Shown: positions 2,707 to 60,034, counted from the first letter of the stretch. The stretch is 64,000 nt of DNA from Candidatus Binatia bacterium (GCA_023150935.1 JAKLJW010000008.1:1721-65720), one strand, 5' to 3'. Made by a program: numbers and translations. Notes: generated from the letters alone by a model not told the origin.

Positions 2707-2718
2707 ACACGGCCCCGG

Positions 2719-3333: not shown

Positions 3334-3346
3334 GCCGCTCGTCCTC

Positions 3347-4507: not shown

Positions 4508-4855
4508 CCTCTTTCGACCGGCTCACCGCCGCTACGCGGCCACAGGCGTTCGCTGGTTTGCCGACGAGACGCACGACGCGCCGTCCCATCGGCGTTCCGT
4601 CTTGACGGAAGTTCGCCGCCGGCGCAAGCCACCCGTACCGCACCGATCGTCCCAGGCAGCGCCGTCATCTCGGCGCGGGGCAGCGCCCGCAGCCCAAAGC
4701 GAACAACCAGCCCGTTCGCCCCTGCCGAGCCTGTCCCTCGATACGCCGCCTGAGAAGACGGCTGCTACTCGGGACGAACGGCAGGACACAGCCCTTACAT
4801 GGCCTGAAGATTTCTTCGCGCAGTGCGCGCAAACGCGGAATTCGTAAATCGGATC

Positions 4856-5575: not shown

Positions 5576-5760
5576 TCCCGCCTCCTGAGCGTTGCGCGCC
5601 ACGCTTCTTATGCGGATCCGGAAACCGCTGCAAGGTATTTTTTCGAGTCGAAAGCCGAGACCAGCAACCGAAAGGGTGTTGCTCAATGTACCCGACTCCG
5701 GTTATCTGGGAGACGGATGCAGCGGAGATGAACCGACCTGGGCGGGGGAGGAAGTACGTA

Positions 5761-7533
5761 ATGGCGGTACAAGGGCAGCGCGATCGCCCACCGACTCGGG
5801 CGATGCGGGCGAGCCCGGCATCGTGCGCCCCGTCGGAAACGAGATCATTCGGTCTTGCAGTCGCCGCGGTGTTCTTGAGTATCGTCTGCGCGACACCGCT
5901 GCGCGCCGCACTCGACCCGGGAGCCGTCGCGCCGGCAGTCACGACGATGCTCGGGCGGCCGACGCCGCTGCTCGTCGACGGCACCGTGCTCGACGCCGAG
6001 ACTTTGCGGTTCGCTTACGAAGCGCGCGCCGGAGCGCCACTCTGGGTGGCTCGCGGCAAGGACGACGAGCAGCGGGTTCGCGCCGTGGCCGACGTGTTGG
6101 CCGCGGCGAACGGTGAAGGCCTCGACCCGCGCGCCTATCACGTCGGCCTCATCCAGCGCCGGCTCGGCACCGAAGAGCCTACCGGGCTCGTCGAGCTCGA
6201 GTTGCTGCTCTCCGACGGCGTCTTGCGATACGCCGCCCATCAGACCCGCGGCGTCAACCCGCCGCGGTATGGCAACGGAGAGCTAGGCTTCGAACGCGAA
6301 GCGCTCGACGCCCGGGGAACCCTGCTCGGCATCGCGGAAGCGCCGGACCCGGCGCGGGCTCTGCGCGACCTGGCGCCGCAACACGCCGGATATGCGCGCC
6401 TGCGCGACACGCTGCGCAACTACCGCGAGATCCAGAAAGCCGGCGGCTGGCCCACCCTACCCGACGGACCGAAGCTGGAAGTGGGCATGAGTGACGCGGC
6501 CGTCCCGGCCCTGCGCCAACGCCTGGCGGCGACCGCGGAATACGACGGCGCTCCGTCCGACTCCAGAATCCTCGACGCGGCGCTCGTCGACGCGCTGAAA
6601 CGGTTCCAAACGCGCAACGGATTGCTCGCCGACGGAATCCTCGGCAAAGGAAGCCGGGCGGCGTTGAACGTTTCTGTCGATCGGCACATCGACCAGATCG
6701 TCGTCAACATGGAGCGCTGGCGATGGCTTGGTCCCACGCTCGGCGACCGTCACGTCAAGGTCAACGTCCCGGCCTTCGCGCTCGAACTCGTCGAGAACAG
6801 CAAGGCCGTGATGGCGATGCCCGTCGTGGTCGGCAAGCAGAACCAGCGCACTCCGAATTTCAGCAGCGAGATCCGCCAGCTCGTGTTCAACCCCTCCTGG
6901 TTCATCCCGCCGAGCATCGCTCGCGCCGAGATCATGCCCAAAGCGCGCGTCGACTCGACGTACCTGAGCCGCAACGGTTACGTCGTGCGTTACGCCGCCG
7001 CGCCGACTCCGGCGACCGCGACCGACGCTGCCGCAGGGCCGCCACCCCCTTCGCCGGCGCCGCGGGTGATCGGCCTCAAGCAGCCGCCGGGTCCGAAGAA
7101 TCCGCTCGGACGCGTGAAGTTCGACCTACCGAACGCCTTCGGCGTGTATCTGCACGACACGCCGTCGCGTGCCAGCATTCAGCAGAGCGGCCGCGCCGCC
7201 AGTCACGGCTGCATCCGGCTCAGCAACGCCCTCGGCCTTGCCGATGCGCTCCTTACCGACAGCGGCGGCCTGTCCGACGCGCGGCGCAAGAAACTGCTGT
7301 CGACCTGGCAGACAAAGACCGTCACGCTGTCGCAGCCGGTCCCCGTGCACATCGTGTACGAAACCGTCTGGGTCGACGACAGCGGCGTCGTACACACACG
7401 TCCGGACGTCTACGGGCGCGACGACAAGCTGAAGAAGCAACTCACCGAGGCGCGGTCGGCACGGCCGACGGTCTACGCCCGCCGGCAGCCCGAGCCCCCG
7501 ATCGACGCCGAAAAGACCGTCGCCGCACCGTAA
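5761..7533 (+). CDS. L,D-transpeptidase with peptidoglycan-binding domain (YcbB/LdtD-like)
   Basis: ATG at 5761 is preceded by GGGGGAGGAAG. PG_binding_1-like segment LRQRLAATAEY...LKRFQTRNGLLADGILG. YkuD catalytic motif ...VYLHDTPSRASIQQSGRAASHGCIRLSNA. An alternative start exists at 5803. Confidence 0.85.
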   Translation: MAVQGQRDRPPTRAMRASPASCAPSETRSFGLAVAAVFLSIVCATPLRAALDPGAVAPAVTTMLGRPTPLLVDGTVLDAETLRFAYEARAGAPLWVARGKDDEQRVRAVADVLAAANGEGLDPRAYHVGLIQRRLGTEEPTGLVELELLLSDGVLRYAAHQTRGVNPPRYGNGELGFEREALDARGTLLGIAEAPDPARALRDLAPQHAGYARLRDTLRNYREIQKAGGWPTLPDGPKLEVGMSDAAVPALRQRLAATAEYDGAPSDSRILDAALVDALKRFQTRNGLLADGILGKGSRAALNVSVDRHIDQIVVNMERWRWLGPTLGDRHVKVNVPAFALELVENSKAVMAMPVVVGKQNQRTPNFSSEIRQLVFNPSWFIPPSIARAEIMPKARVDSTYLSRNGYVVRYAAAPTPATATDAAAGPPPPSPAPRVIGLKQPPGPKNPLGRVKFDLPNAFGVYLHDTPSRASIQQSGRAASHGCIRLSNALGLADALLTDSGGLSDARRKKLLSTWQTKTVTLSQPVPVHIVYETVWVDDSGVVHTRPDVYGRDDKLKKQLTEARSARPTVYARRQPEPPIDAEKTVAAP

Positions 7534-8200: not shown

Positions 8201-8340
8201 GGTTCCCTCTCCCTCAACTTCTGCTTCGAAAATCCGGGAGGGCAAGCGCAATGGCGGGTAGCCATCGGGGTCGGCATCGGTATCGGAATCGGTATCGATT
8301 CGAATGCCTCGATCCCGATAGCGATTCCGACCCCGACCCC
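8201..8340. repeat. Composite repeat, left copy: palindromic hexamer-repeat element (core 8241-8340)
   Basis: The core ggcaagcgcaatggcgggtagccatcggggtcggcatcggtatcggaatcggtatcgat...cgatagcgattccgaccccgacccc is about 90 percent identical to 20032-20125, apart from a 6-nt indel. It consists of tandem ATCGGN hexamers on one arm and their complement on the other. Confidence 0.85.
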
Positions 8341-8403
8341 GCAGAGGGCACCACATTTTCATCCTCTTCAGACGACCGCCAGGTCATGGGCGGCATGTGC
8401 GGC

Positions 8404-8435
8404 AACGCGCGCGGAGCGCGCGTTCCACCCGGGCG
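8404..8435. repeat. GC hairpin repeat, left copy (aacgcgcgc-gga-gcgcgcgtt + ccacccgggcg)
   Basis: A 9-bp perfect stem with a 3-nt loop. The same sequence occurs at 20534-20566 (two substitutions in the tail). Both copies lie just 3' of a minus-strand gene end (8552 and 20575), so it may act as a terminator. No U-tract. Confidence 0.7.
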
Positions 8436-12559: not shown

Positions 12560-15500
12560 CTAGCGCGGAACGCCGAGATCGATCCAGCGTACAACGGCCG
12601 CCAGCTCCTGCTCCGAAAGAGGATGCGCCGACGGATGCGGCCGGTCCCCTGCGATCGCGCCCGGTGCGTGCAACTCCCGACCCAGCAACTTCTCCGTCAG
12701 AGCGCTCTCGATCGCCAGTCCCTCGCCCGCCGTGTATCGGCGCAACGCCTCGTACGCCTCCGTGCCGGTCAGGTTCACCCCCGCCGCAGGGTCTTTGCCC
12801 GCGTGGCAGCTCGCACAACGCGCCTCGACGATCGGCCGCACATCGGTGTCGAAACTCGCCTCGCGCAACTCCACGGGTCCGTCGCCCGACCAGTTCGCAG
12901 GCATACGGCCCGTACCGCTTTCCTGGCTCCAGTTCGCCAGCGTCCGCGACGCCGAAGTCATCGCGTCGGGCCGGCGCAGGGTATCGGCCGGCCTCCCCGT
13001 CAGTCCGCCGTGACAGCCCCCACAGGTCTGCGCGAAGAGACGCCGCGGAATCGACAGGGTGTGCAGCTCGCCCGGCTGCGCGTACAGCCAGCGGTTCGGC
13101 GAACGCAACGCCATGCCCCGGCCGTTCAGCGACTGGAGGTCGAAAGCGAGCCCCGACGGCACCGCGGCGTAGAACGAACCGTCGGGTTCGAGCGGCAGCT
13201 CCGCGATAGTGACGCGCCTGTCGTCGCGCCATCCCACCAGTCTGACCCCCTGCACCTGATCGACGTCGGGCGTTTCCGTACCGCAGATCGGGCAGCTCGC
13301 CGTCGCGATGTGACGAGGCCCCACCGGCACGATCTGCTCGAAGAACGCATCGAGCAGCGGCAGGTCGGCCACGTGCAAGACGGCCGGCGTTCCTTCCGGA
13401 TAGCCGGCAAAGCCGCGCACGACCGCCGGCGCCCCGAACAGTCTCTCCTGCCGCAGCAACGACTTGCCCACCGGCTCCTTAAGACGGGCAACGACCGGGC
13501 GCGGCCACAGCTCGGAGTCGGGACCCCCGATCGTCGGCTCGCGCCGGAAAGCGCCGGGGGCGAACCCGTCCGGGGTCTGCCACGCCGGCGCCGGTACAAG
13601 TCGAAAGATGTCGAAGTCGGGATCGGCCCCCGCATCGGTCAGATCCAATGGCCCCTGCGCCCATGCAACAACGACGCTCCCGTCGGGCATCGGGAAAGGA
13701 TCGCGGTACGCACCGCCGGCCGACACACCGCGGGCCGCAGCCGTTGCATCGAGCGCCAACCACCCCGGCACGAAGCGCGGCAGCGACGTCACCGGCGTGC
13801 CGGTCGCATACGGATGATCGAGATTGTCGGTGGGGTTGTCGGCCTCGATCGTCGGGCCGAACTGGTGATCGGAAAGAATCAGACTGCCGCCCCACCACGA
13901 ATCGGCGTCACGGCCGATGCGGACCTCGAGGCCGTTCGGCAACTCGCGGTCGTCGGCGAAGATCGGCACTCCCGAACGGTTGCCGTTGTGGGTGTGGAAG
14001 TTCGAGCCGTCGACGTGGGTGCGGAACAACGCGCCGTTGAAGAACGGCCGGCCGTCCTGTTCTCCGGTACGCAGCGACGTGAACACGATCTCGCCCGACG
14101 ATCTCATCGTCGGACGCCTGACCTGACTCGGCGAGTAGGTCATACGCCGCAGCGTCGACCGCAACGTCTCCCGTTCCTGCCCCGGCGCCGCCAGTCGCAT
14201 ACGATAAGCGTCGAAACACGGCGCCAAGCGCGGCGTGCCTTCGATCACGTAGTGCGTCGTCGAGTCGATCGCGCGCGGCAGGGGCGCGTCGAGCAGCAGC
14301 TTCCCGGTTTCGTGACGCCGGACACGCCGCAGCGCTCCGGCGTTGCTGCCGCGAACGAAACGCACGGTACGACCGTCGTAGGCGCCCGCTCGCTCGGTGA
14401 GCTGGTCGTCGAGCAGCGCCGTCGAGCTGCCACCCTCGGCCTCGCCGAGGCGGCCGGCCGGACTCGACCGGCAAGCGCCCGCGTCGAGATTGGAGACGAA
14501 CACCAGCGCCGCGCGCGACAGGTCGTCGCCGTCACGGTCGTCCGGGTCCGGCACGTACAACGGATCGAGGAAGTGTACCGCCGGATCGGTCGAGAACGTC
14601 AATTGCCGCGCGGCACCGGTCGCGAGTTCGATCTCCCACAAGTCGAACGGTTCCTCCGCCGACCGGCGCATCGCAAAGACCACGCGGCGGGCGTCATAGC
14701 TCACCGCGGGCGCGCGCACGTCGGCCGCGGTGCCCTTGTGCAGGCCGGCCGTGAGGTTGACCTCCTCGCCGTCGCTGCGCCGCCAGTAGAGATCGCCCCC
14801 CGGCAGAAAGGTCAGGTCCTCGAAGAACCGTTCGGGGGAGTGACGTGGCCGGCGCACGAACACGAAGCCCCGCACCTCGCCGAGGGCGGCCGCCGTCCGC
14901 CGGCGGGCATCCTCGGCTTCGAGCCGCAGCCATTCGACCAGTAACCGGTAATCGGGATCGTCCTTGCGGAAAAAGTCGTTCCCGCCCTTGTGCACGATGC
15001 CGCCCTGCTCGACCGGGATGTTCTTGAGCAGTTGCTTCGACTGCTCGACGTCGCCGTCGAGCGCGACGAGCCGGGTGACCTTGCCGAGCATCGCCTGCCG
15101 GTTCGCACGGTGCATCGCGCCGGAAAACCGCGCCGGCAGGGCCGGCATACCGGCATCCAGCTTGAGGTCGTTGAAGGCCAGCTCGCCGTGGCAGTTGGCG
15201 CCCAGGCAGGTCTTGCGCACGAGGATCGGCGCGACCCGGCCGGCGAAGAACTCCTCGGTGGCACTCGGCGGGGACGGTGCGGACTGACGGGTGCGCGCCT
15301 CGACCTCGAGCCAGGCAACCAGTTCCGCGTAATCCGGGTCGTCGGGCGAGGCGAACACCTCCGGATGCCGCCAGTACCCGGAGTAGGCGGTCGCCAGCGG
15401 GGCGCGGGCAAGGAGACTTGCGGCCGGCGTTCCCGGATCGATCGGGCGCAGCGTGCGCGTCTGAGTCTCCCGGATCCGGGTACACCGATCGTAAGCGGCA

Positions 15501-19987: not shown

Positions 19988-20125
19988 AGGTCCCTCTCCT
20001 TCGAACATTGGGATGGGTGGGACCGGGGATGGGCAAGTGCAATGGCGGGCAGCCATCGGGGTCGGCATCGGCATCGGTATCGATCCGATTCCCTCGATCC
20101 CGATAGCGGTTCCGACCCCGACCCC
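19988..20125. repeat. Composite repeat, right copy: palindromic hexamer-repeat element (core 20032-20125)
   Basis: Homologous to 8201-8340 and in the same orientation. The core is ggcaagtgcaatggcgggcagccatcggggtcggcatcggcatcggtatcgat...cgatagcggttccgaccccgacccc. Confidence 0.85.
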
Positions 20126-20130
20126 ACGGC

Positions 20131-20190
20131 AACAGCACCCCACCGCGGAGTCAGGTCCCTCTCCCAGCGGGAGAGGTCAGGTGAGGGGAT
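20131..20190. repeat. 60-bp inverted repeat, left arm, flanking the DUF559 fragment
   Basis: aacagcaccccaccgcggagtcaggtccctctcccagcgggagaggtcaggtgaggggat. The reverse complement of 20453-20512 matches at 56/60 positions. Contains an internal 8-bp hairpin cctctccc/gggagagg. Confidence 0.9.
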
Positions 20191-20207
20191 CCACATCCTC
20201 CCGCAGT

Positions 20208-20444
20208 TCAGTCCCGTGTCACGATCGCCACGCCCCGCACCGCTTCCCCAATTCTCGCCAGCACACCCTCGATGTTTTCAATCACGTCGTTGTTCCAGAA
20301 CCGCACAACCCGGCACCCCGAGAGTTTCAGAAACCGGGCACGCTCTTGGTCGTATTCCCGTTGCTCCAAGTGCTGACCGCCATCTACTTCCACCACCAGC
20401 CTCGATTCCACGCAACAGAAGTCGACGTGACGCTCGTGCCTCAT
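20208..20444 (-). pseudogene. DUF559 (Vsr-like endonuclease domain) fragment, N-terminally truncated
   Basis: 78 aa: ...VDFCCVESRLVVEVDGGQHLEQREYDQERARFLKLSGCRVVRFWNNDVIENIEGVL. This is the C-terminal two-thirds of a DUF559 domain. An in-frame TAA lies just upstream of the ATG. Confidence 0.75.
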
Positions 20445-20452
20445 TCGATCTT

Positions 20453-20512
20453 ATCCCCTCACCTGTCCTCTCCCGCCGGGAGAGGAACCTGACTCCGCGG
20501 CGGGGTGCTGTT
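20453..20512. repeat. 60-bp inverted repeat, right arm
   Basis: atcccctcacctgtcctctcccgccgggagaggaacctgactccgcggcggggtgctgtt. Pairs with 20131-20190. Confidence 0.9.
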
Positions 20513-20533
20513 ACCGTGCTGTGGCGGGCATCG

Positions 20534-20566
20534 AACGCGCGCGGAGCGCGCGTTTCACCTGGGCGG
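20534..20566. repeat. GC hairpin repeat, right copy
   Basis: aacgcgcgcggagcgcgcgtt + tcacctgggcgg. Homologous to 8404-8435. Lies 9 bp beyond the stop of the minus-strand gene that ends at 20575. Confidence 0.7.
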
Positions 20567-23171: not shown

Positions 23172-26100
23172 CTAAGTGGTGTGGCCGCGGTCGATTGCCG
23201 GCGTTGCCGCCGGCGGTAGACCGGGGGCCGCCGAAGGCACACGATCGGCTCGGCGTCCGCTGATTCGCGCCAGGAAGCGGCCGATATCCTCGAGAACCAG
23301 GTACCCGCACGGAACCACGAGCAGCGTGATAAGCGTTGCGAACAGCACCCCATAACCGAGCGAGATGGCCATCGGGATTAGAAACTGCGCCTGGACGCTT
23401 TGCTCCGTCATCAGAGGCAACAATCCGACGAAGGTCGTCAGTGAAGTCAGCACGATGGGCCGAAACCGGGCCACGCCCGCTTCGGTAATCGCGTCGTGGA
23501 CGGTCACGCCTTCGCTGCGGGCCTCGTTGACGAAGTGCACCAACACCAGACTCGCGTTCACCACCACACCGGAAAGGGCGACGATACCGATCACCGACAT
23601 CATGCTCAGATGTCGACCCATCAAGAGGTGCCCGCCGATCGCACCGACGATGCCGAACGGAATCACGCTCATGATGATGAACGGCTGGGTATACGAACCC
23701 AGCGGGATCGCCAGCAACGCGTACACCGCGAACAGCGCCAGAACGTACGCGCCCAGCAAACCCGACAGCGCGCGGGTCTGCTCGCGTTGCTCCCCTTCGA
23801 GATCGTAAGACACCGACGGGTAGTCGGCGAGGATGCGCGGCAGCTTCTCGCCGGTCATATCCTCCAGCACTTCGTTTGCCGTCGTCACCGCGCGGTCGAC
23901 GTCGGCCGTAACGTTGACGACGCGCTTGCGGTCGGTGCGCCGGATCGTCGAATAGCCGCGGCCGAGATCGACCGTGGCCACCGTCGAAAAGGGCACCTCG
24001 GTGCCGTCCGGGGCGCGCACGCGGAGATTTTCGAGATCGCCGATCGAAGTTCGATCGCGCTCCGGGTACCGGACCATGACCCGGATGTCGTCGCGCCCGC
24101 GCTGGATGCGTTGCGCCTCCTGTCCGTAGAAAGCCTGCCGCACCTGACGCGCGAGGTCCTGCAGGGTCAACCCCAGCAATTCGGCCGACGGTCGGATGCC
24201 GAGCTTGATCTCGCGCTTGCCGGCACGAAAGGAGTCGGCGATGTCGACGACGCCGGGATAACGCGCGAGTTCGTCCTTTACGCGCCGTGCCGCCTGCGCC
24301 AGTTCATCGATGTCGGTGCCGGCCAACTCGATATCGATGGCGTTGCCGGCCGAAAACAGGTCGGAGGCATACCCGAGCTCGGTCGCTCCCGGCACGGCGC
24401 CGACGAGATCGCGCCAGCGCTGGCCGATCTCCCCGGTGCTGATGTCGCGCTCCTCGGAAGGCACGAGCCCGATCACCACCTCGGCGACATTGCCGCGCAC
24501 TTCGCCGATCCCCTGCACCGCCGCGGGGTTATTGTCCTGCCGGTCCTTCAACGGCTGCGCCCCGACCGCCGTGAGCACGTTCTTGAATAGACTGGCGCCG
24601 GGCCGCGCGTGCGCCGCGTCGATCTCCTGCCGCAACGGCCCCACGGCCGCCGCGATACGGTCGACCGCCGCCTGCGTGACTTCGGCGGTCGTGCCCGGCG
24701 GCATCGTCAGACGGGCTGACAGGTAATCCGCCTCGATGGGCGGAAAGAAGGAGAAGTGCATGCGGCCGCTGGCAACCACCGTGAACGCCAGCAGCAACAG
24801 TACCATCGCAATGGCAATGGTCGTGTAGCGCCATTCCTGCGCCAGCACCAACACCGGGCGGTAGACCTTGTGCGCGAAAGCTATCAACCCATCGCTGCAG
24901 CGGTCTTGCAGCCCCACCCATGCGCGCCCGACTCGGGTACGAGGTCCGCGGTGCGGATGGGCGTGACCGAGATGAGCGGGCAGCACGAATTGCGACTCGA
25001 TCAGCGAACACACCAGGCACGCGATCGACACGATGCCGGCGACGGCGAACACCTGGCCCATCGGGCCCGGCAGCACCACCATCGGCACGAACGTCGCCAC
25101 GGTCGTCAGGACGCCGAAGACCACCGGTACCGTCACCTGTTGCGTGCCGATCACCGCGCCTTCGAGGTTGTTGCCGAGCTTCTCCTGCCAGGTGTGAACG
25201 CTCTCGCCGACCACCGTGGCGTCGTCGACGAGGATGCCGAGCACGACGATGAACGCGAACAGCGAAATGACGTTGATCGAGATGCCGAGCGGATTGAACA
25301 GCGCGAGAGCGCCGAGGAAGGAAATCGGGACGCCGAGGGTTACCCACGCCGCCAGTCGCGTGTGCAGGAACAGCGTGAGCACGATAAACACGAGAATGAA
25401 CCCGCTTCTCGCGTTGCTCAGCAGCGTTTCGAGCCGGCCGCGCAACGGCACCGAATCGTCTTGCCAGACGGTCAGCGAGACGCCCTCGGGCAGCCGCGGT
25501 TGGGCCGTGGCGACGTATTCTTTGACCGCCTCCGCGATCTCGATAACGTCCTGCTGCCCGACCCGAAACACCTGGATCAGCAGCGCGGGTTTTCCGTCGA
25601 AACGTCCCGAGACGCTGGTATCCGCGAAGCCGTCGACGACCGTGGCGACGTCGCCGAGCGTTACCCGGGTGCCGTCGGCGCGCGTGAGGACGATGATGTC
25701 CTCGAAGTCCGGCCCGCGGTACGCCTGCCCTTTCGCGCGCAGCAGGATTTCTCCGCCGGCCGTCTCGATGGTGCCTCCGGGCAGATCGAGCGAAGAGCGG
25801 CGGACGGCGGCGGCGACATGATCGAACGTGATGCCGTGGCGGCGCAGCGCCTCCTCGGAAATCTCGATCGAGATCTCGAACGGCCGCGCCAGTACCACGT
25901 CGACCTGAGTGATCGCCGGATGGGCGGCAAGCTCGTCGCGGATCCGTTCGGCAATGGCGCGCAGGCTGCGCTCGTCGGCGGGCCCGTAGAGGGCGATGTC
26001 GCTCACCGGGCGCCGAATCGTAACGCGCGCCACGATCGGCTTCTCCGTCTCCGTGGGAAACGTGTTGATGGCATCGACGCGGTTCTTGATGTCGGTGAAC

Positions 26101-26414
26101 ACGCGATCGACGTCGGAGCCGGCGAGCACCTCCGCAATAACCGCACATGCTCCCTCGGCGGCCGTCGAACGAATGCGGTCGATGCCGTCGATACCGTCGA
26201 TCTGCTCTTCGATGCGAACGCAGACGCCCTCTTCGACTTCCTCGGGCGCGGCGCCCAGGTACTCGACGGCGACGCTCACCATGTCGATATCGATGTCCGG
26301 GAAGGTCTTTTGCGGAATCGACGGCAGGGCCATCAGGCCGCCGACGACGAGAACCATCATCAGCAGGTTGGCCGCGACGTTGTTGCGCGCGAACCAGGCT
26401 ACCGCCGTCTTCAT
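23172..26414 (-). CDS. RND efflux permease (AcrB/HAE-type)
   Basis: ATG at 26414, 4 nt after the adaptor-gene stop. About 1080 aa. MKTAVAWFARNNVAANLLMMVLVVGG...PDIDIDMVSVAVEYLGAAPEEVEEGV is the typical AcrB N-terminus. Two 6-TM bundles and large periplasmic loops. Confidence 0.9.
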   Translation of the reverse strand: MKTAVAWFARNNVAANLLMMVLVVGGLMALPSIPQKTFPDIDIDMVSVAVEYLGAAPEEVEEGVCVRIEEQIDGIDGIDRIRSTAAEGACAVIAEVLAGSDVDRVFTDIKNRVDAINTFPTETEKPIVARVTIRRPVSDIALYGPADERSLRAIAERIRDELAAHPAITQVDVVLARPFEISIEISEEALRRHGITFDHVAAAVRRSSLDLPGGTIETAGGEILLRAKGQAYRGPDFEDIIVLTRADGTRVTLGDVATVVDGFADTSVSGRFDGKPALLIQVFRVGQQDVIEIAEAVKEYVATAQPRLPEGVSLTVWQDDSVPLRGRLETLLSNARSGFILVFIVLTLFLHTRLAAWVTLGVPISFLGALALFNPLGISINVISLFAFIVVLGILVDDATVVGESVHTWQEKLGNNLEGAVIGTQQVTVPVVFGVLTTVATFVPMVVLPGPMGQVFAVAGIVSIACLVCSLIESQFVLPAHLGHAHPHRGPRTRVGRAWVGLQDRCSDGLIAFAHKVYRPVLVLAQEWRYTTIAIAMVLLLLAFTVVASGRMHFSFFPPIEADYLSARLTMPPGTTAEVTQAAVDRIAAAVGPLRQEIDAAHARPGASLFKNVLTAVGAQPLKDRQDNNPAAVQGIGEVRGNVAEVVIGLVPSEERDISTGEIGQRWRDLVGAVPGATELGYASDLFSAGNAIDIELAGTDIDELAQAARRVKDELARYPGVVDIADSFRAGKREIKLGIRPSAELLGLTLQDLARQVRQAFYGQEAQRIQRGRDDIRVMVRYPERDRTSIGDLENLRVRAPDGTEVPFSTVATVDLGRGYSTIRRTDRKRVVNVTADVDRAVTTANEVLEDMTGEKLPRILADYPSVSYDLEGEQREQTRALSGLLGAYVLALFAVYALLAIPLGSYTQPFIIMSVIPFGIVGAIGGHLLMGRHLSMMSVIGIVALSGVVVNASLVLVHFVNEARSEGVTVHDAITEAGVARFRPIVLTSLTTFVGLLPLMTEQSVQAQFLIPMAISLGYGVLFATLITLLVVPCGYLVLEDIGRFLARISGRRADRVPSAAPGLPPAATPAIDRGHTT

Positions 26415-26418
26415 CCGC

Positions 26419-27681
26419 TCAGTGCGCCCCGGCGGCGGCCGTCGCCACCGCCGCGTTGTTCCGCATGGCCGGGCGGACGCGCATGCCGTCGACGGCGGTC
26501 TCGATCGCCGAGGTGACGATGCGATCTCCGCGTGCGAAGGTCTTCGCGGCCAGCACAACGTCGCGGCGCTCCCGGCGGATCACATCGGCGCGGCGCATTC
26601 GCAGTCGGTCGTCCGCATCCACCACCAGGACGTGATCTCGATCGCGCATCGCCGCCCGGGGCACCACGACGACCTCGTCGACGGTCCGGCCCAGGATCTC
26701 GGCCTCGACGAACAGACCGACCGCCAGGGGCGGCGCCCCGTCGTTGTCGCCGTAAGGATCGTCGACCGCGGCAACCAGGTTCACCAGGCGACTGCGCGTG
26801 TCGATCTCGCCCTCGGTGCGCACGACATGTCCGCGCCACTCCTGTTCGCGACCGGCAAACTCGGCGCGCAGGACGACTTCCGGGTTTTCGGCCGGCGGCA
26901 GACCGCTACGGCTCAGGAGCGGCACATCGATAAAAGCCAGTTCCGCATCGGCGATCGGCAGGCGGACTTCGGCGCGGTCGATGGCGTACAGGTGAGCCAC
27001 AGGAGCGCCGCGGCTAACGAACTGGCCGACGTCGACGGTCTCGCGGCGCACTCGTCCCGTAAACGGCGCGCGCAGCCTGGTCCGATCGAGATCGCGCTCG
27101 GCCTGTTCGAGTGCGGCCCGAGCCTCCCGCAACGTCGCCGCGGTTACGCGTTCGGCACGCTCGACGTCGTCGAGTTGAGCCTGGCTGGCGACGCCCGTCT
27201 TGATCAGGCCGCGCAGCCGCTCGAGTTCCTTGTCGGCGCGGACGTGCTCGCTTTCGGCGCGGGCCAGCGCCGCCCGCGCCCGCTCGCGCGCCACTTCGTA
27301 GTCGGCGGGTTCGATCTCGATCAGGACCTCCCCCTCCTCGAAGAACCCGCCCGAAACCAGTCGCGGCGATACCCAGACCGCCTTGCCCGAGACCTGCGGC
27401 ACCAGATCGCTCTCGGTCCGGGCCGAGACGGTACCCTGGGTACGCACCCGCATCCGGTGACGGGTGACGTTAACCGGGGCCACTTCGACCGCCGGCGCGA
27501 CCGCCTCCGGGACCCGTTCCGTTACATCCGGCGCGGTTGCGAACAACAGCGCCACGGCACCCAGGCCGGCCGCGAACACGGCAACCGGTAGCACGATCTT
27601 GAGGGTTCGCTTCACGATCGCGACTATAGGAGGTCGCCTGCCCCAATCAAGGTAGAGCCTCGACGGGGCGGCTCGAGGCAT
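26419..27681 (-). CDS. RND efflux periplasmic adaptor (membrane fusion protein, HlyD family)
   Basis: Anchor LKIVLPVAVFAAGLGAVALLF. Lipoyl/hairpin pattern VSGKAVWVSP...GEVLIEIEPADYEVARERARAALARAE...LRAPFTGRV. The start is ATG 27681 or GTG 27615. Confidence 0.85.
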   Translation of the reverse strand: MPRAAPSRLYLDWGRRPPIVAIVKRTLKIVLPVAVFAAGLGAVALLFATAPDVTERVPEAVAPAVEVAPVNVTRHRMRVRTQGTVSARTESDLVPQVSGKAVWVSPRLVSGGFFEEGEVLIEIEPADYEVARERARAALARAESEHVRADKELERLRGLIKTGVASQAQLDDVERAERVTAATLREARAALEQAERDLDRTRLRAPFTGRVRRETVDVGQFVSRGAPVAHLYAIDRAEVRLPIADAELAFIDVPLLSRSGLPPAENPEVVLRAEFAGREQEWRGHVVRTEGEIDTRSRLVNLVAAVDDPYGDNDGAPPLAVGLFVEAEILGRTVDEVVVVPRAAMRDRDHVLVVDADDRLRMRRADVIRRERRDVVLAAKTFARGDRIVTSAIETAVDGMRVRPAMRNNAAVATAAAGAH

Positions 27682-27719
27682 CGCCGGACCCCGGCGGGCG
27701 CTCGGCCGCGGTTGGCGAC

Positions 27720-30389
<2,670 letters not shown>

Positions 30390-30636
30390 GGCGACTGCTA
30401 CCCGGCGAGAGCGTCGAACGGCACCGGCTCGGCACGATCCGCATGCCCCGCCCCCGTGCAGGGACGCTCCGGCGTCGTCCGGGTCGGGACTCTCGGCCAC
30501 GATCGACGGCTAACGGGGCATCGCAGTCGAACCCACCGCGGGCCCGCACAAGCGATCTGTTCATCCGCGGCCGTCATTCACGCAGCTTGTACTTGACGCA
30601 AGCTGCCCCGTCGAGACGGCCGGGTTCCAGCGGGGG

Positions 30637-30670
30637 CCCGTCGTGTGCGGGTCCCCGTCGTGTGCGGGTC
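30637..30670. repeat. Perfect 17-bp tandem duplication (cccgtcgtgtgcgggtc x2)
   Basis: Read directly: 30637-30653 equals 30654-30670. Each unit holds a short cccg...cggg inverted repeat. It lies about 250 bp upstream of the ATPase start codon. Confidence 0.9.
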
Positions 30671-31127
30671 GGACCACTTCAACCTGCGGTAATCGCTGGA
30701 TCTACGTAACGAAATCAGGCGCATTTTGCGGCTATGGCGTCGTTTTCGACGCCAGAACCGCCAGGATACGCCGCCGCTTCCTCACGCAGGACATGGGGCG
30801 CCGCCCTCACCCACCCGATTCCGAGGCAAAAAACGACCGCATAGACCCGTCTTTGAAGCCAGAATAAGCGACTTGTCAAATAAATGCGCGTACATCCGGA
30901 GGTCCGACCCACGCGACTCCGCAGGGTGCGAATTCCCACCGTTTCTCGCTGCGGGCTATGGCGTCCTTCCCGCCCCGTCCCGGCTTGTCCCGGACCGTTC
31001 GTTTGCAGAATGTTTGCGCCTCGTCGGTTCCGGATCTCGGTGGGATGTTGCATCACTCCGAGGGCGACATGGCGACCGTTCGGGCAGGCGCCGGCATCGG
31101 TGGGTGACGGTGCCCGAGTGGCCGCGA

Positions 31128-31400
31128 TCAGTACCTATCGATGTTCTCTCTCAGGATCAGCTTCAGCATTGTCTGATAAGGCAAGCCGCGTTTCTTCCCC
31201 TTCTGGGTCAGACGCGCGATAAGATCCGCCTCCAATTTGATGGAGGTTGGCCGGAGGGGCCGAACCACGACCGCCGAACCGGCCGCCTGTGCTGCGTCCG
31301 CCCAGTCCCCGCCCACCGTATCATTGCGGGTATTCCTCACTACGCCGATTCGCTTTCCCGCCGCCGCCGGTTTCCTCTTCCCGGCCGATGAGGCTCTCAT
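31128..31400 (-). CDS. brnA: BrnA-family antitoxin
   Basis: The C-terminus TSIKLEADLIARLTQKGKKRGLPYQTMLKLILRENIDRY is the BrnA RHH-like pattern. It sits directly downstream of brnT. The start is uncertain because the track start overlaps brnT by 80 nt. Confidence 0.75.
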   Translation of the reverse strand: MRASSAGKRKPAAAGKRIGVVRNTRNDTVGGDWADAAQAAGSAVVVRPLRPTSIKLEADLIARLTQKGKKRGLPYQTMLKLILRENIDRY

Positions 31401-31710
31401 AGAATTTCCTTTCCTTACGCCCCATGGGGCGACAACTGATTACACGTACCTTCGCGCCGCGGCGGGTGAAGACCATCGTGAGCCGTTTGCCGGTGTCTGT
31501 CTCTCCGAAGAGCACCCAGCGGGGTTCCGCATAGACCGGACTCACGACGCGGCCGGCGAGCACGAACACGCGTTCGATCAGGGACTCCGCCTCGTCGCAG
31601 GTCACGCCGTGCTTGGTCGTGCTCTTCAGGCTGTTGCCCTGGTCCCATACAAACGGGGGACGCCGCGCAAGCCACGCCGCCGTCTCCTCATCCGCAACGA
31701 GCCGCCTCAT
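31321..31710 (-). CDS. brnT: BrnT-family toxin (DUF497 ribonuclease)
   Basis: FVWDQGNSLKSTTKHGVTCDEAESL...RWVLFGETDTGKRLTMVFTRRGAKVRVISCRPMGRKERKFY matches the DUF497 consensus (F.WD..K...N..KHGV.F.EA...R.ISAR.....E...Y). Confidence 0.85.
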   Translation of the reverse strand: MRRLVADEETAAWLARRPPFVWDQGNSLKSTTKHGVTCDEAESLIERVFVLAGRVVSPVYAEPRWVLFGETDTGKRLTMVFTRRGAKVRVISCRPMGRKERKFYESLIGREEETGGGGKANRRSEEYPQ

Positions 31711-31724
31711 TGCCCACCAGCAAC

Positions 31725-31743
31725 GTAGCTACCGCGTAGCTAC
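31725..31743. promoter_or_regulatory. Twin 8-bp palindromes GTAGCTAC-cgc-GTAGCTAC: putative BrnTA operator
   Basis: GTAGCTAC at 31725-31732 and 31736-31743, with an 11-bp centre-to-centre spacing. They begin 15 bp upstream of the brnT ATG (31710). Confidence 0.5.
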
Positions 31744-31826
31744 CCGTCAATCATCGTACGGAGCCGCGCCCGCGATGCTTTGCGTTGCCGGCGTTGCTCC
31801 GCTCCTTGATCCCGTTGGGCGGAACC

Positions 31827-31862
31827 GACGAGACACCCACGTGCGAACCCGACCCGCCACCG
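31827..31862. repeat. 36-bp direct repeat, copy A (CACGTG core)
   Basis: gacgagacacccacgtgcgaacccgacccgccaccg. 33/36 identical to 32070-32105. Confidence 0.85.
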
Positions 31863-32069
31863 ATGAGCGCAGGGTGAGCGGGGGAAACCCAATCAAATTC
31901 CACCACCGCTCAGGCTGAGCCTGTCGAAGCCGGGTTTGGCCGCTTATCGACAGTCTCTTTCGCGGGAATGACGAAGGTCCCGCCGAGGCTTTGCAGGACG
32001 GCCACCCACGCGGTTTTCGCTGACCCTTGCCACAGGCTGCCGAGCATCCGTTAGTGTAACTGACGAACT

Positions 32070-32105
32070 GACGACACACCCACGTGCAAACCCCACCCGC
32101 CACCG
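32070..32105. repeat. 36-bp direct repeat, copy B (CACGTG core)
   Basis: gacgacacacccacgtgcaaaccccacccgccaccg. Lies 207 bp from the 3' end of tRNA-Sec. Confidence 0.85.
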
Positions 32106-32261
32106 TTCGTGCCGAGTAGCGCCGCTTCCTCAGGCGCGTATCGAGGCACGTCCGCTGTCACCCCTCGATACGGCCCCTGAACAAACGGGTCCTACTCGGG
32201 GCGAACGGGGAGTTGCGGGCATTGGGTTGCGGGGGGTAGCCCGCGCGATGTTCCAGGAGGA

Positions 32262-32311
32262 GGAGGACAAGTCCTCCGTAGCCCCCGCGTCAGATGAAGC
32301 GTGCGCGGGGG
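32262..32311 (-). terminator. Two GC hairpins immediately 3' of tRNA-Sec
   Basis: On the minus strand, CCCCCGCG-14 nt-CGCGGGGG (32311-32282) abuts the tRNA 3' end. It is followed by GGAGGA-cttg-TCCTCC (32277-32262). No U-tract. Confidence 0.35.
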
Positions 32312-32403
32312 CGGAGGAGGAAGGGAGTCGAACCCTCCGTCCGACTTGCGCCGGACCACGCGGTTTTGAAGACCGGGGAGGCCACCGGGCCCCATCCTCC
32401 TCC
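32312..32403 (-). tRNA. selC: tRNA-Sec (anticodon UCA)
   Basis: Minus-strand 92-nt sequence: GGAGGAGG-AT-GGGGCC-CGGT-GGCCTC-..CGGT-CTTCAAA-ACCG..-GTCCG-GCGCAAGT-CGGAC-G-GAGGG-TTCGACT-CCCTT-CCTCCTCC-G. It has an 8-bp acceptor, a 6-bp D-stem with a 4-nt loop, a UCA anticodon in a CTTCAAA loop, a long variable arm, a 5-bp T-stem with GGTTCGACTCC, and discriminator G. This is the bacterial 8/5 tRNA-Sec architecture (compare E. coli selC). CCA is not encoded. Confidence 0.9.
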
Positions 32404-32415
32404 GTACCGTCCGCA

Positions 32416-32443
32416 AGACTATTCGATTTGAGAACATGGGCAA
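32416..32443 (-). promoter_or_regulatory. Candidate sigma70-type promoter for selC
   Basis: Minus strand: TTGCCC (32443-32438), 16-nt spacer, TAGTCT (32421-32416), ending 12 nt upstream of the tRNA 5' end. Weak consensus match. Confidence 0.3.
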
Positions 32444-32580
32444 GGCGGGGATGAAGGGCCTGGGGGATCCACCACCTCACGTCCCCACGCCCTCATGCCC
32501 CCATGCCCTCACGCCCCAAGCCCCCAGCCATTGTCCCCGCCCTCCGTTTGCGTATTCTCTGGGCCCGGAGGACCGTACTC

Positions 32581-33786
32581 ATGCCTGCAGAACACGGCGC
32601 GCCCCCGTGGCGTAGCTTCGATCTCTTCGCCCCCACCGACGAACACCGCATGCTCGCCGACACTCTGCACACTTTCGTCCGCGACGAGGTGGAACCGCAA
32701 GCCGCCGCTTACAACCGCGACGAGCGCTTCAACCTTGCCCTGTTCCGCCGCGCCGGCGAACTCGGCCTGCTCGGGCTCACCATCCCCGAAAGCGAAGGCG
32801 GCGCCGGACTCGATGCCACCGCCGCGGTCATGACCCACGAGGCCCTCTCGTATGCCGACCCCGCCTTCTGCCTCTCGTACCTGGCGCACGCCGTGCTCTT
32901 CGCCCACAACTTCGCCCACAACGCCACCCCCGCCCAGCTTGCCCGCGTCCTGCCCAAAGCCATCAGCGGCGAGTGGATCGGCGGCATGTGCATGACCGAA
33001 CCGGACGCCGGCACCGACGTCCTCGGCATGCGCTCCACCGCCGTCCGCCAGGGCGATCACTACGTCCTCAACGGCCGCAAAATGTTCATCACCAACGGCG
33101 CTGTCGACGACCACACCCTCGGCGACGTCTTCCTCGTCTACGCCAAGACCGACGGCAAGATCAGCACCTTCCTGATCGAGAAGGGATTTCCCGGATTCGC
33201 CCTCGGCCAGCGCCTGCACGACAAGCTCGGCATGCGCGCCTCGATGACCGCCGAGCTGGTCTTCGATAACTGCATCGTGCCCGCCGGCAACCTCATCGGC
33301 CACGAAGGCGAGAGCATGAAACACATGATGCGGAACCTCGAGATGGAACGTCTGACCCTCGCCGCCATGTCGCTCGGCATCGCCATGCGCGCGGTCGAGG
33401 TCATGTTCCGCTACGCCAACGAGCGGAAGGCGTTCGGCACCGCCATCCGTGACTTCGGTCAGGTTCAGGCCCACCTCGCCAACTCGTACGCCGAGTTCAA
33501 AGCCGCCCGCGCCCTGGTCTACGATGTCGCGCGCCGGCTCGACCCCAGCACCTTCGGCAACCGCGCCGACGCCGACGCCGCTAAACTGTTCGCCGCCCGC
33601 ATCGCCAAAGACATCGCCGACCGCGCCATTCAGGTCCTCGGCGGCTACGGCTACATCGGCGAGTACGTCGTCGAACGCCTGTGGCGCGATGCCAAGTTGC
33701 TGGAGATCGGCGGCGGCACCAACGAGGCGCACCAGAAGAACATCACCAAAGACGTCTCCCGCACCCCGGAGATGATCCGCCGGTGA
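32581..33786 (+). CDS. Acyl-CoA dehydrogenase, isovaleryl-CoA dehydrogenase-like
   Basis: ATG at 32581. ...FNLALFRRAGELGLLGLTIPESEGGAGLD..., LSYLAHAVLFAHNF, GGMCMTEPDAGTDVLGM, YVLNGRKMFITNG and QVLGGYGYIGEYVVERLWRDAKLLEIGGGTNEAH align in order with IVD/LiuA-type ACADs. Confidence 0.85.
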   Translation: MPAEHGAPPWRSFDLFAPTDEHRMLADTLHTFVRDEVEPQAAAYNRDERFNLALFRRAGELGLLGLTIPESEGGAGLDATAAVMTHEALSYADPAFCLSYLAHAVLFAHNFAHNATPAQLARVLPKAISGEWIGGMCMTEPDAGTDVLGMRSTAVRQGDHYVLNGRKMFITNGAVDDHTLGDVFLVYAKTDGKISTFLIEKGFPGFALGQRLHDKLGMRASMTAELVFDNCIVPAGNLIGHEGESMKHMMRNLEMERLTLAAMSLGIAMRAVEVMFRYANERKAFGTAIRDFGQVQAHLANSYAEFKAARALVYDVARRLDPSTFGNRADADAAKLFAARIAKDIADRAIQVLGGYGYIGEYVVERLWRDAKLLEIGGGTNEAHQKNITKDVSRTPEMIRR

Positions 33787-34745
33787 ACCGCCCCATTCTC
33801 GCCGCAATGGTCACGCTCGCGGTCGCCGCCGGCACCGCATGCGCCCACCCCCCGCACGCCTCCACGTCCCCACGCCCCCACGCCCTCACGCCCCCACGCC
33901 CCCCCCGCTTCTTCGTCCACGGCGACGGCCGTTTACGGCTCCGCCACGCCCACTTCAACAGCGTCCTCGACGTTCGCTATCGCCGCCCCGACGGCACTTA
34001 CGATCCGGCGGCGCTGGCCGAGATCCGGCACTTCTTCCGTTCCCGCGGCGACGGACGCGAAGGCCGCATATCGCTGCGACTGATCGAGCTGCTCGGCTAC
34101 GTACAAACCCACTACCGGCCACGGACGATGACCCTCGTCTCCGGATATCGCAGTCCGGACTACAACGAAGGAATCCGCTCGGCCGGGGCGCTGGCGGCGC
34201 AAACCTCGCTGCACACCCAGGGCCTTGCCGCGGACGTGGCAATGACCGGCGTCAACTTGAAGCGGCTCTGGACCGACCTGCGCGCCGAACAAGTCGGCGG
34301 CGCCGGGTACTACCGTAGCGGCAACTTCCTGCACCTCGACACCGGGCCGCCGCGCTTCTGGGAGGAAACGACCTCGCGGGTGAAAGACAACCTCTCCGCC
34401 GACAACGCGCGCGTCTTCGTTCGCACGGACTTCGACTACTACGACCGGCTCGACGGCGCCCGGGTGGAGCTGCACAGCGTCACGGCGTTTCCCCTCGCGA
34501 TCCGCCGGGAAGCGTCCGTGGGGGGAACGCAGGTTGTGCTCGAAGCGGCGGACAACACGCCGGCGACGCGGCGCGGCGATTGCCTCGTCATCGACGCCCC
34601 GGCCGACGCCTACGTCTTCAACGTACGCTCCGCCGACGGGCACGGTTCCGCCGGCAAGGCGCCGCTGGTGCTCACCACCTGCGCGCCGCGCACCGGCAAG
34701 ACGAAGGCCGAACTGGTCTCGAATCCGATCGAGGCGGAGCGGTAG
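33783..34745 (+). CDS. DUF882 / peptidase M15A-family protein (YcbK/MepK-like murein endopeptidase)
   Basis: GTG at 33783 overlaps the ACAD stop (GTGA). Signal-like ILAAMVTLAVAAGTACA. SGYRSPDYNEGI, the zinc-ligand pattern SLHTQGLAADV (H-x6-D) and NFLHLDTG. Confidence 0.75.
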   Translation: MNRPILAAMVTLAVAAGTACAHPPHASTSPRPHALTPPRPPRFFVHGDGRLRLRHAHFNSVLDVRYRRPDGTYDPAALAEIRHFFRSRGDGREGRISLRLIELLGYVQTHYRPRTMTLVSGYRSPDYNEGIRSAGALAAQTSLHTQGLAADVAMTGVNLKRLWTDLRAEQVGGAGYYRSGNFLHLDTGPPRFWEETTSRVKDNLSADNARVFVRTDFDYYDRLDGARVELHSVTAFPLAIRREASVGGTQVVLEAADNTPATRRGDCLVIDAPADAYVFNVRSADGHGSAGKAPLVLTTCAPRTGKTKAELVSNPIEAER

Positions 34746-42094: not shown

Positions 42095-42766
42095 ATGCGT
42101 CTTCCCCAACCTTTTACTTCCGTGCTGCCCGTTCTGGTCGCTTCGACCATGGCCGGGTGCAGCCTTGTCGGTTGGAGGCATCCCGAGGCCCTACCGACGG
42201 TAACCCTCCGGGCGTCGACTGTGACGGCTCTGAGCGAGGGCGAGATCGCGGCCACCATCGTGCTGACGGTGCGCAACCCCGATTCGAACCCTGTACGGGT
42301 CGGGCGCGTTCGTTACCGGCTCACCTTCCCCGGAGGCGCCGAGGCCGGGGGCGCGGTAATCGTGAACGCGACCGTACCCGGCGGCGACGGCCATCTCGAT
42401 ATCGAGCTTCCGGTGCGTATAGCGAAGCGCCGTCTCCTGCCGGGGGCGGCGCCGATGCTGCTTTTGGGCGAGTTGCCGTACGACCTCGACGTCGGCGTGA
42501 GCATCGGAGCGCCGCTATTCGGCCACACCATCGACGTGCAGACATCCAGCGCGCTGCGGCTCGATCTGCCTCTGGAGCTGGTGCGACCCGGTCCCGGGCG
42601 GGACCCGGCCGGGGCCACGGCAAAGTCGTTCACCGAGGGGCGAACGGTTTTCAGGCATTACGGAACCCGGAATCCGTTCGGGCCGAGTAGCCGCCTTCTT
42701 CTGGCGGCGTATCGAGGCTCCGTCCCCGACTATGCCGTGGCCCTGGGGACTCGGCCCCCGGTTTGA
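42095..42766 (+). CDS. LEA_2 / WHy-domain lipoprotein
   Basis: ATG at 42095. Lipobox LVASTMAGC. VTLRASTVTALSEGEIAATIVLTVRNPDSNPVRVGRVRYRLTF...LDIELPVRI is the LEA14-like beta-sandwich pattern. The reality of the C-terminal tail is uncertain. Confidence 0.6.
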   Translation: MRLPQPFTSVLPVLVASTMAGCSLVGWRHPEALPTVTLRASTVTALSEGEIAATIVLTVRNPDSNPVRVGRVRYRLTFPGGAEAGGAVIVNATVPGGDGHLDIELPVRIAKRRLLPGAAPMLLLGELPYDLDVGVSIGAPLFGHTIDVQTSSALRLDLPLELVRPGPGRDPAGATAKSFTEGRTVFRHYGTRNPFGPSSRLLLAAYRGSVPDYAVALGTRPPV

Positions 42767-42872
42767 ATTCGCCTCCGGCGGCTGGCAAACGAGGTAGAGG
42801 TTGCCGGTGCCGCGGCACCGGATGCCGGCCGCTGCCGATACGATCATCCCCGCAAAGGAGACACCGAACACC

Positions 42873-59719: not shown

Positions 59720-60034
59720 CTCGTTTCCGGTATCCGGCCGGTGCGGCGACTGCGGTCAACCACCGATGTCACACCGGCCCTGCGAATTGCGCTGTGTATG
59801 CAAACCGCTCGCGTTGCCCTCAAGAAGGCCGAACCAGGCGCCGGACAGCCGCCCGAGTCGCCGGACGTTGCACCTTCTCGATTCATTGCGCCGACGTCGC
59901 AAGTTCATTGCACCGGGACGCGGAGCATACCGAATGCGTGTCGCCGAGGGCAAGGAACCGGGGGCCGTAAGCCCGGCGGTATGCGCAGGGGCTAGTGGAA
60001 AACACCGGCCGCTGCATGCTAGCCATCGTACCCG

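Follow-up and report, generated by a model that had tools for sequence, protein, structure and literature searches.

The long intergenic region beside selC in a Candidatus Binatia bacterium is probably a collection of small mobile and decaying elements

Between the tRNA-Sec gene selC and the start of a P-type ATPase gene, a Candidatus Binatia bacterium carries about 1.9 kb of DNA (positions 30390-32309) that houses a toxin-antitoxin (TA) pair, brnT and brnA, and little else that could be coding. The tract lies in a 64-kb stretch of a metagenome-assembled genome (MAG), all of which we analysed and which is called the window below; an earlier note on this DNA had proposed that the tract might be a decayed integration island. 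Our data argue, with moderate confidence, for another reading, namely that it is an unusually long intergenic region at a synteny breakpoint, where small pieces that are independently mobile or decaying have collected, with no recognisable integrase-borne island. We propose that brnTA would have come in as a cassette, that two hairpin elements, A and B, would have been spread by a Y1 transposase of the RAYT type (REP-associated tyrosine transposase; REP, repetitive extragenic palindrome) encoded elsewhere in the genome, and that the 737 nt closest to the ATPase gene would be decayed DNA without function. Followed from selC along the minus strand, the tract would be made up of trailer hairpins, hairpin B, one copy of a direct repeat (D1b), a spacer of ~110 nt, the hairpin pair A, the other copy of the repeat (D1a), brnTA, 737 nt of non-coding DNA with a variable-number tandem repeat (VNTR), and the gene for a Ca-type P-ATPase.

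The feature is an ordinary one: small selfish elements have piled up, current understanding is unchanged, and an island is not demonstrable. The collection of small pieces and a fully decayed island are not mutually exclusive. What the analysis offers is a clear negative result for the island claim, together with a defined list of parts, with which the 1.9-kb tract can be annotated as brnTA plus repeat elements rather than as an island. The tools used were ARAGORN for tRNAs, Rfam, Pfam (applied to each open reading frame (ORF) and to six frames with stops masked, E ≤ 1), NCBIfam and TRF, and copy counts cover the 64 kb of the window.

The tRNA-Sec gene and its use as an attachment site in relatives

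ARAGORN detected a single tRNA in the whole window, a tRNA-SeC at 32310-32403 on the minus strand with the anticodon TCA (UCA in the RNA) at position 35 and no encoded CCA. The Rfam family RF01852 matched 32313-32403 of the same strand over model positions 1-91 of 91 (77.7 bits vs. a gathering score of 47, E 1.8e-15), and the Infernal alignment displays a long acceptor stem, a 6-bp D stem and a long variable arm. The gene is also 92% identical to selC in other Binatia MAGs. By the measure of RF01852 the tRNA-Sec gene is genuine, and the earlier assignment of such a gene to 32312-32403 (minus strand) is upheld by both programs. Rfam returned tRNA-Sec only, whether at E ≤ 1 on 29.5-33.5 kb or at the gathering score on the whole window. 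The 3′ end of the tRNA is immediately followed by two G+C-rich hairpins, GCCCCCGCG...CGCGGGGGC and GGAGGA-cttg-TCCTCC (32262-32312, minus strand), detected as inverted repeat I3 and in the minimum free energy fold of 31711-32312. They are probably a trailer, or a terminator without a U-tract; our consensus scan found no terminator with a T-run, and neither consensus promoters nor consensus terminators in general.

Several islands and phages of Enterobacteria are associated with selC, among them the locus of enterocyte effacement (LEE), pathogenicity island I (PAI-I) of uropathogenic Escherichia coli (UPEC) 536, SHI-2 and the retronphage phiR73. The window resembles these in having extra DNA on the 3′ side of selC that is gene-poor, slightly GC-poor and equipped with a TA module. 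The reading of the tract as a decayed island would have an integrase-mediated element inserted in the 3′ half of selC, which then lost its integrase, its distal half-copy of the tRNA gene and most of its cargo, leaving brnTA and eroded DNA; the ATPase gene and the efflux genes that follow it may belong to the same element. We regard this as a possible but minority explanation, and the evidence for and against it comes from relatives as well as from the window itself.

Scanning a genome collection for a selC pattern returned 53 loci. Those with the nearest tRNAs, at 86-93% identity, were 13 loci of Candidatus Binatia-type MAGs, two of which are labelled delta-/Deltaproteobacteria, and one Terriglobales locus. 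The genes on the 5′ side of selC, encoding an acyl-CoA dehydrogenase (ACAD) and an M15 peptidase, are kept as a pair beside selC in L032, L048, L057 and L060/L073 (L060 and L073 appear to come from one organism). The 3′ side, in contrast, is different in every Binatia relative. There we found a ferric-reductase-like membrane protein gene 36 nt from selC (L073), genes for a methyltransferase-like protein (L057), a hybrid histidine kinase (L033), YceI (L031), an enoyl-CoA hydratase (L024), a thiamine pyrophosphate (TPP) enzyme (L014) and the pair of DoxX and DUF3419 proteins (L039), and, in L051, a type I restriction-modification system at 2-7471 with an HsdR-like protein of 1,244 aa and N6_Mtase. 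A conserved 5′ flank next to an ever-changing 3′ flank is what an island at selC would lead one to expect, and the restriction-modification system adjoining selC points the same way. However, the selC-pattern genome scan and a metagenome scan with ACAD gave no relatives closer than about 92% identity for the tRNA and 75-80% aa identity for ACAD. At such distances rearrangement may explain the lost synteny, which by itself therefore proves little.

Integration at selC can be made out in two of these relatives. In L018, an 83-nt direct repeat (2858-2940 and 5282-5397), consisting of the selC 3′ half and 20 nt of trailer, encloses a 2.4-kb insert with genes for an Lcl_C lipoprotein and a PDDEXK_3 nuclease and a 104-aa ORF. 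In L048, a displaced 42-nt selC 5′ half (3879-3920) lies upstream of the intact selC (7003-7097), and the 3.1-kb insert between them carries a gene for a TPR protein and an unknown gene of 515 aa; this arrangement indicates an integration in which the tRNA gene had its 5′ half replaced. In both relatives the anticodon loop marks the point where the similarity ends (crossover). Judged from these sequences, where half-tRNA repeats flank small inserts, selC is an attachment site in Binatia, as well as a synteny breakpoint in this lineage. The inserts bounded by selC half-copies are a further likeness to the enterobacterial islands. They also lend the decayed-island explanation some support, and neither of them has an integrase.

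No trace of integration in the window

The window differs from the enterobacterial selC islands in lacking an integrase, a direct repeat of the tRNA 3′ end and any virulence or phage cargo, and in the size of the tract, 1.9 kb rather than tens of kb. The half-tRNA repeat, still plain in L018 and L048 where integration did occur, is absent here. The best local match between the tRNA and its flank is 12 nt long with a Smith-Waterman score of 24, a score reached by 18% of shuffled flanks; matches of 12-14 nt at 32006-32017 and 30525-30538 were accordingly rejected as a hidden half-copy. Nothing significant turned up anywhere in the 64 kb either, with a search that detected both the 83-nt (L018) and the 42-nt (L048) half-copies as positive controls. 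The earlier note had itself remarked on the missing tRNA 3′ fragment, and was right to do so. The integrase remnants for which it suggested a search were not there: six-frame Pfam analysis of 30390-32312 at E ≤ 1 found no integrase or transposase domain, in agreement with the ORF scans, and blastn searches (setting 'distant') against collections of phages and plasmids gave no match.

Composition gives a mixed picture. The GC content of 30390-32309 is 0.645 vs. 0.683 for the window, with brnTA at 0.626 and a minimum of 0.606 at 30691-31170, which would suit foreign DNA. Codon-phase GC reveals no coding signal in 30400-31100 or 31720-32310, and the run of weak phase (including the weakly phased brnA) is the longest in the window. 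The description of the tract as gene-poor and lower in GC is therefore accurate. The drop in GC is real but modest, as the tract falls inside the range of other weak-codon-phase stretches (0.61-0.74) and of short intergenic spacers (0.64-0.83). Moreover, GC at third codon positions (GC3) is host-like, being 0.87 for the ATPase gene and, for brnT, 0.77, close to host genes (0.80-0.88).

The ATPase gene at the distal end of the tract could be counted as part of an island. Its product is 100% identical to an NCBI entry named 'cation-translocating P-type ATPase [Candidatus Binatia bacterium]', and the next homologues, from outside the species, are 70-71% identical, the named ones coming from Gammaproteobacteria (Sulfuricaulis, Sulfurifustis) and Nitrospiraceae and not from Binatia. 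This pattern suggests that the gene may have been laterally acquired. Its synteny was no guide, the best non-self homologue (P0002, 70%) standing in an unrelated context.

The earlier note had proposed to compare relatives. Between organisms the 3′ flanks differ as described above; within the species all retrieved contigs carry the tract, which speaks against a decayed island. The island claim as a whole divides in the same manner: selC is genuine and is used as an integration site in the lineage, whereas an integrase remnant, a selC half-copy and a phage or plasmid match are all missing from the window.

brnT and brnA as a self-contained cassette

The brnT gene (31321-31710, minus strand) encodes a protein of 129 aa whose residues 22-100 match PF04365 over profile positions 1-77 of 77 (60.4 bits vs. 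a cutoff of 34.5), followed by a 29-aa acidic C-terminal tail. An identical protein is named 'BrnT family toxin [Candidatus Binatia bacterium]' at NCBI, and the length of 129 aa is shared by five homologues of 66-85% identity. By its match to PF04365 the product is a BrnT-family toxin, with ribonuclease activity as its predicted function. Downstream lies an ORF for a 90-aa ribbon-helix-helix antitoxin (31128-31400, minus strand; an alternative start at 31316 would give 62 aa), which scored below the cutoffs of both CopG_antitoxin (PF12441; 21 vs. 28 bits) and BrnA_antitoxin (PF14384; 17.8 vs. 26.1 bits). Its frame is nevertheless open, with a Met start, in four of four cassettes, and the C-terminal 44 aa are 79-84% identical. 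Because it fails the Pfam cutoffs yet is conserved with brnT, we describe it as BrnA-like. No NCBIfam model matched either protein. Six-frame Pfam analysis of 30390-32312 yielded nothing besides this pair, in line with the earlier view that brnT and brnA are the only credible genes of the tract.

The two frames overlap out of frame by 80 nt (31321-31400), which is unusually long for a TA operon. Both remain open in cassettes whose BrnT proteins are only 66-71% identical to that of the window.

Homologous DNA of about 0.63 kb was found in four other contigs (L144, 94% nt identity; L141, 76%; L142 and L143, 74%). L142 and L143 are near-identical, so these represent three distinct other genomic contexts. 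The similarity starts 40-70 nt before the brnT ATG (window 31750-31779) in L141, L143 and L144, and at the ATG itself (31710) in L142. At the other end it stops at the brnA stop codon (31127/31128) in L141, L142 and L143; L144 is a 1,012-nt contig that ends within the cassette, at window 31257, and its downstream end is not visible. The cassette flanks are unrelated, and no tRNA lies near brnTA in L141-L144. As far as sequence comparison can tell, brnTA is a self-contained cassette with sharp ends. Its standing alone elsewhere argues against a decayed island.

Upstream of brnT, five aligned brnTA cassettes from different contexts have a single invariant block, TTGACG-N17-TACGTT together with two GTAGCTAC palindromes (31722-31750, minus strand). 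The 17-nt spacing is that of a putative promoter whose -10 element ends 11 nt ahead of the brnT ATG, and TRF reports a repeat of period 11 with 1.9 copies at 31724-31744. We propose that brnTA would be transcribed from this sigma-70-like promoter of its own, and that the two overlapping palindromes would act as an operator by binding the ribbon-helix-helix antitoxin.

The type II TA system BrnT/BrnA was first described in Brucella abortus. Its families (PF04365/PF14384) and the present pair have in common a BrnT domain above the cutoff, the toxin-first order, palindromes overlapping the promoter and a small downstream protein with a C-terminal segment resembling a ribbon-helix-helix. The cassette of the window is set apart by its 129-aa toxin with the acidic 29-aa tail, by the 80-nt overlap, present in all four cassettes, by an antitoxin under both the BrnA and CopG cutoffs, and by the failure of either protein to match NCBIfam.

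Hairpin elements A and B and the direct repeat D1

The earlier note had spoken of several short repeats in the tract, and these are real: a 41-nt direct repeat, a 17-nt tandem repeat and a 106-nt hairpin. The last, element B (32103-32208, inverted repeat I2), resembles a REPIN (REP doublet forming a hairpin) and is made of two inverted modules of ~45 nt with the layout CCGTTCG-NN-CCGAGTAG-(variable stem-loop)-CGTATCGAGG. As DNA it folds at -33.4 kcal/mol (z = -4.4), and none of 200 shuffles folds as well. Module alignment identified single B modules at 4735-4781 (minus strand), in sequence of weak codon phase downstream of an ACAD paralogue, and at 42675-42725 (plus strand), just upstream of an AMP-binding gene starting at 42801 and with a partial inverted arm at 42636-42649. 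This makes four modules at three loci in 64 kb, all in weak-codon-phase DNA. The four share CCGTTCG-NN-CCGAGTAG and CGTATCGAGG around an inner stem-loop, the stems of which vary between copies and could still pair, as judged from an alignment inspected by eye in which pairs were not counted.

Element A (31861-31953) is a REPIN-like pair recognised from matches to its arms in IMG/VR contigs. Its left arm is degenerate (CGATGAGCGCAGGGTGAGCGG, 31861-31881), and the right arm (CCGCTCAGGCTGAGCCTGTCGAAGCC, 31906-31931) adjoins a hairpin at 31921-31953. Four unrelated IMG/VR contigs contain exact matches of 23-26 nt to the right arm, and in each the arm forms a pair with an inverted partner (consensus CGACAAGCTCAGGATGAGCGG, with variants) at a distance of 20-75 nt. 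In the window element A is single, its multiplicity being deduced from assembly breaks alone.

According to two papers (PMC3116915, PMC3337134), REP and REPIN elements are mobilised by RAYT transposases (Y1, IS200-like) and REPINs are mostly inherited vertically within lineages. Element B has the form of a REPIN, two inverted ~45-nt modules giving a hairpin of ~106 nt. Other likenesses are the dispersal of single B modules in non-coding DNA, the stems that differ and can still pair, and the breaking of short-read assemblies. The degenerate left arm of A is a point of difference, as is the lack of a RAYT gene in the 64 kb, where none of the ~45 ORFs scanned matched Y1_Tnp. A third difference is the identity of the A arm over 23-26 nt in unrelated viral contigs, which is not what the lineage-bound inheritance described in those papers would suggest. 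On the sequence of the 64 kb, A and B appear to behave like REPs and REPINs, forming inverted pairs and dispersed singlets in extragenic DNA. They also share with miniature inverted-repeat transposable elements (MITEs) that they are small, non-coding, hairpin-forming, multi-copy and intergenic, but we saw no terminal inverted repeats matching an insertion sequence (IS), no target-site duplication and no transposase homology. L141, one of the contigs with a brnTA cassette, encodes an IS200-like Y1 transposase at 13310-14149 (NF033573, 68.7 bits) with pairs of hairpins of 100-150 nt on both sides, which shows that RAYT/REPIN-type systems exist in related genomes, with different REP sequences.

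Each hairpin element is preceded by a copy of the 41-nt repeat D1 found by repeat search: D1a (31822-31862) ends where element A begins, and D1b (32065-32105) ends where element B begins. The copies are 90% identical, and the two matches in the window compare with none expected and with 0 of 100 shuffles reaching two. A tandem duplication of a 243-nt unit was rejected as their origin, since outside D1 the two units fail to align. D1 was likewise rejected as a dispersed repeat, no further copy being present in the 64 kb, in 1.2 Mb of fetched loci (≤7 mismatches) or in viral contigs.

A more specific interpretation would treat D1 plus hairpin (D1a with A, D1b with B) as the building block of a modular mosaic repeat, not yet described, that Binatia would carry; REP-type hairpins of different kinds would attach to, or target, one and the same box, and the A arm would mark a small hairpin element moving between distant lineages. 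We consider this doubtful. It has a parallel in the bacterial interspersed mosaic elements (BIMEs) of E. coli, in which hairpins are juxtaposed with another conserved, non-palindromic motif, as A and B are with D1. The movement of the A arm, on the other hand, would be unlike classical, lineage-bound REPINs.

Assembly breaks at the hairpin elements

Look-ups with the exact proteins listed 21 contigs with this BrnT (10 retrieved) and eight with this ACAD (all eight retrieved). All of them are same-species contigs in Logan assemblies, drawn from at least 10 sequencing runs, and their identity to the window is 98.7-100%. On the brnT side, all 10 retrieved contigs break off within the right arm of A, at 31926-31941. 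On the ACAD side, seven of the eight begin where B ends, at 32204-32211, and the remaining one begins further in. The ~270 nt between the two breaks are not bridged by any of the 18 retrieved same-species contigs (29 are on record), which fits either multi-copy repeats or strain polymorphism there. Taken together with the hairpins described above, this indicates that this little-studied phylum has REP/REPIN-like elements and that they break up its metagenome assemblies.

An assembly mis-join through the repeats would be a quite different explanation, according to which selC/ACAD and brnTA/ATPase are not truly adjacent. The absence of any retrieved contig spanning 31941-32204 and the position of the breaks inside A and B are what it would predict. 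However, the break points fall in different repeat families and have D1b and ~130 nt of unique sequence between them, an arrangement that a simple repeat chimera would not yield. Both sides were found together in SRR5266476, SRR35280560, SRR35280562 and SRR36303771, and a protein-based look-up would miss short middle contigs that have no called genes. We consider a mis-join the least probable of the explanations weighed here.

The non-coding remainder of the tract

Between the brnA stop codon and the ATPase start are 737 nt of non-coding DNA (30390-31127) with no codon phase, no Pfam match in six frames and no Rfam match. They contain a 17-nt VNTR (30630-30670), hairpins at 30582-30610 and 30728-30761, and an A/T-rich patch at 30828-30895, where the earlier note had already pointed to poly-A/T. 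One copy of the 17-nt repeat is missing, as an indel at 30637-30653, from four of 10 same-species contigs, and in these 10 contigs strain substitutions are mostly in the non-coding part. This polymorphism looks like neutral evolution.

We also weighed the possibility that the non-coding DNA is functional, as a structured 5′ leader of the ATPase mRNA or as small RNAs downstream of selC, with D1 as conserved boxes (RNA 3′ ends or sites bound by protein). In its favour, shuffles of the 602-nt interval from brnT to selC fold less well than the real sequence on either strand (z = -4.9 and -4.1), D1 shows 90% conservation within 243-nt units that otherwise fail to align, and each D1 comes after a strong hairpin on the minus strand. 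Yet the excess folding of 31711-32309 is accounted for by the REPIN-like hairpin B, and the D1 copies themselves fold no better than shuffles (z = -0.7 and +0.5). The ATPase-proximal ~738 nt, which are the most polymorphic part, have a non-significant RNA fold (z = -1.6), on which ground a structured leader for the ATPase was rejected. Rfam at E ≤ 1 gave no family here, none of the relatives conserves the sequence, and the scan found no consensus promoter or terminator; a functional non-coding region is unlikely.

Several observations weigh against the collection of small pieces that we favour. It relies on a Y1/RAYT gene outside the window, none being present inside, and the copy counts of A, B and D1 are limited to 64 kb. 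The exact abutment of both D1a and D1b on a REPIN-like element is a fact for which the model gives no account. What is seen here, a selC 3′ flank unlike that of every relative and furnished with a TA module, would also be expected of a very old island that had decayed completely. The GC minimum of 0.606, which sits in the 737-nt gap, is the lowest of any weak-codon-phase stretch in the window. Finally, strain polymorphism rather than repeat copy number could underlie the assembly breaks.

UGA decoding, flanking genes and other repeats in the window

From the presence of selC it is plausible that the organism decodes UGA as selenocysteine (Sec). Among the ~45 ORFs scanned in the 64-kb window there was no selA, selB or selD and no credible UGA-interrupted gene, two candidate selenoprotein genes with in-frame TGA having been rejected as they look like antisense artefacts or junk read-through. 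Since the selC of the window is real, UGA-containing redox genes elsewhere in the genome should be checked before they are called pseudogenes.

The distal flank of the tract begins with the ATPase gene (27720-30389, minus strand, ATG at 30389), which encodes a P2-type (Ca2+-like) enzyme of 889 aa by Pfam and matches TIGR01522 at 744.8 bits, under the equivalog cutoff. It is followed by an HlyD-type (26419-27699) and an AcrB-type (23172-26558) efflux gene. On the other side, the conserved 5′ flank of selC consists, by Pfam, of the ACAD gene (32581-33786, plus strand), divergent from selC, and the Peptidase_M15 gene (33783-34745). A second ACAD paralogue at 3347-4507 (minus strand) explains a 157-nt inverted repeat, 73% complementary, between 4001-4157 and 32943-33099.

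The ACAD gene is bracketed by two period-8 tandem arrays, CACGCCCC x6.2 at 32478-32526 and CCCACGCC x7.4 at 33844-33903; no other array of this period in the window reaches six copies. The second sits within the part of the M15 lipoprotein gene that encodes its N-terminal linker. At these two positions Binatia relatives carry other arrays of short period, whose units differ in sequence, some of them arranged as direct-plus-inverted sets (L057, 6938-7107 and 5560-5761; L048, 1300-1490; L032, 7293-7388; L073, 9793-10000). Further away, two copies of a ~200-nt repeat, ~90% identical, are separated by 11.8 kb (8240-8435 and 20031-20565), with CATCGG hexamer arrays, and the second of these regions includes a 75-nt inverted repeat, 88% complementary (20116-20190 and 20453-20527). 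An ORF at 60334-62691 (minus strand) matches PF10712 (NAD-GH), a family to which antisense ORFs of high-GC DNA often give matches; the true gene at this site is probably on the plus strand, at 59995-62253.

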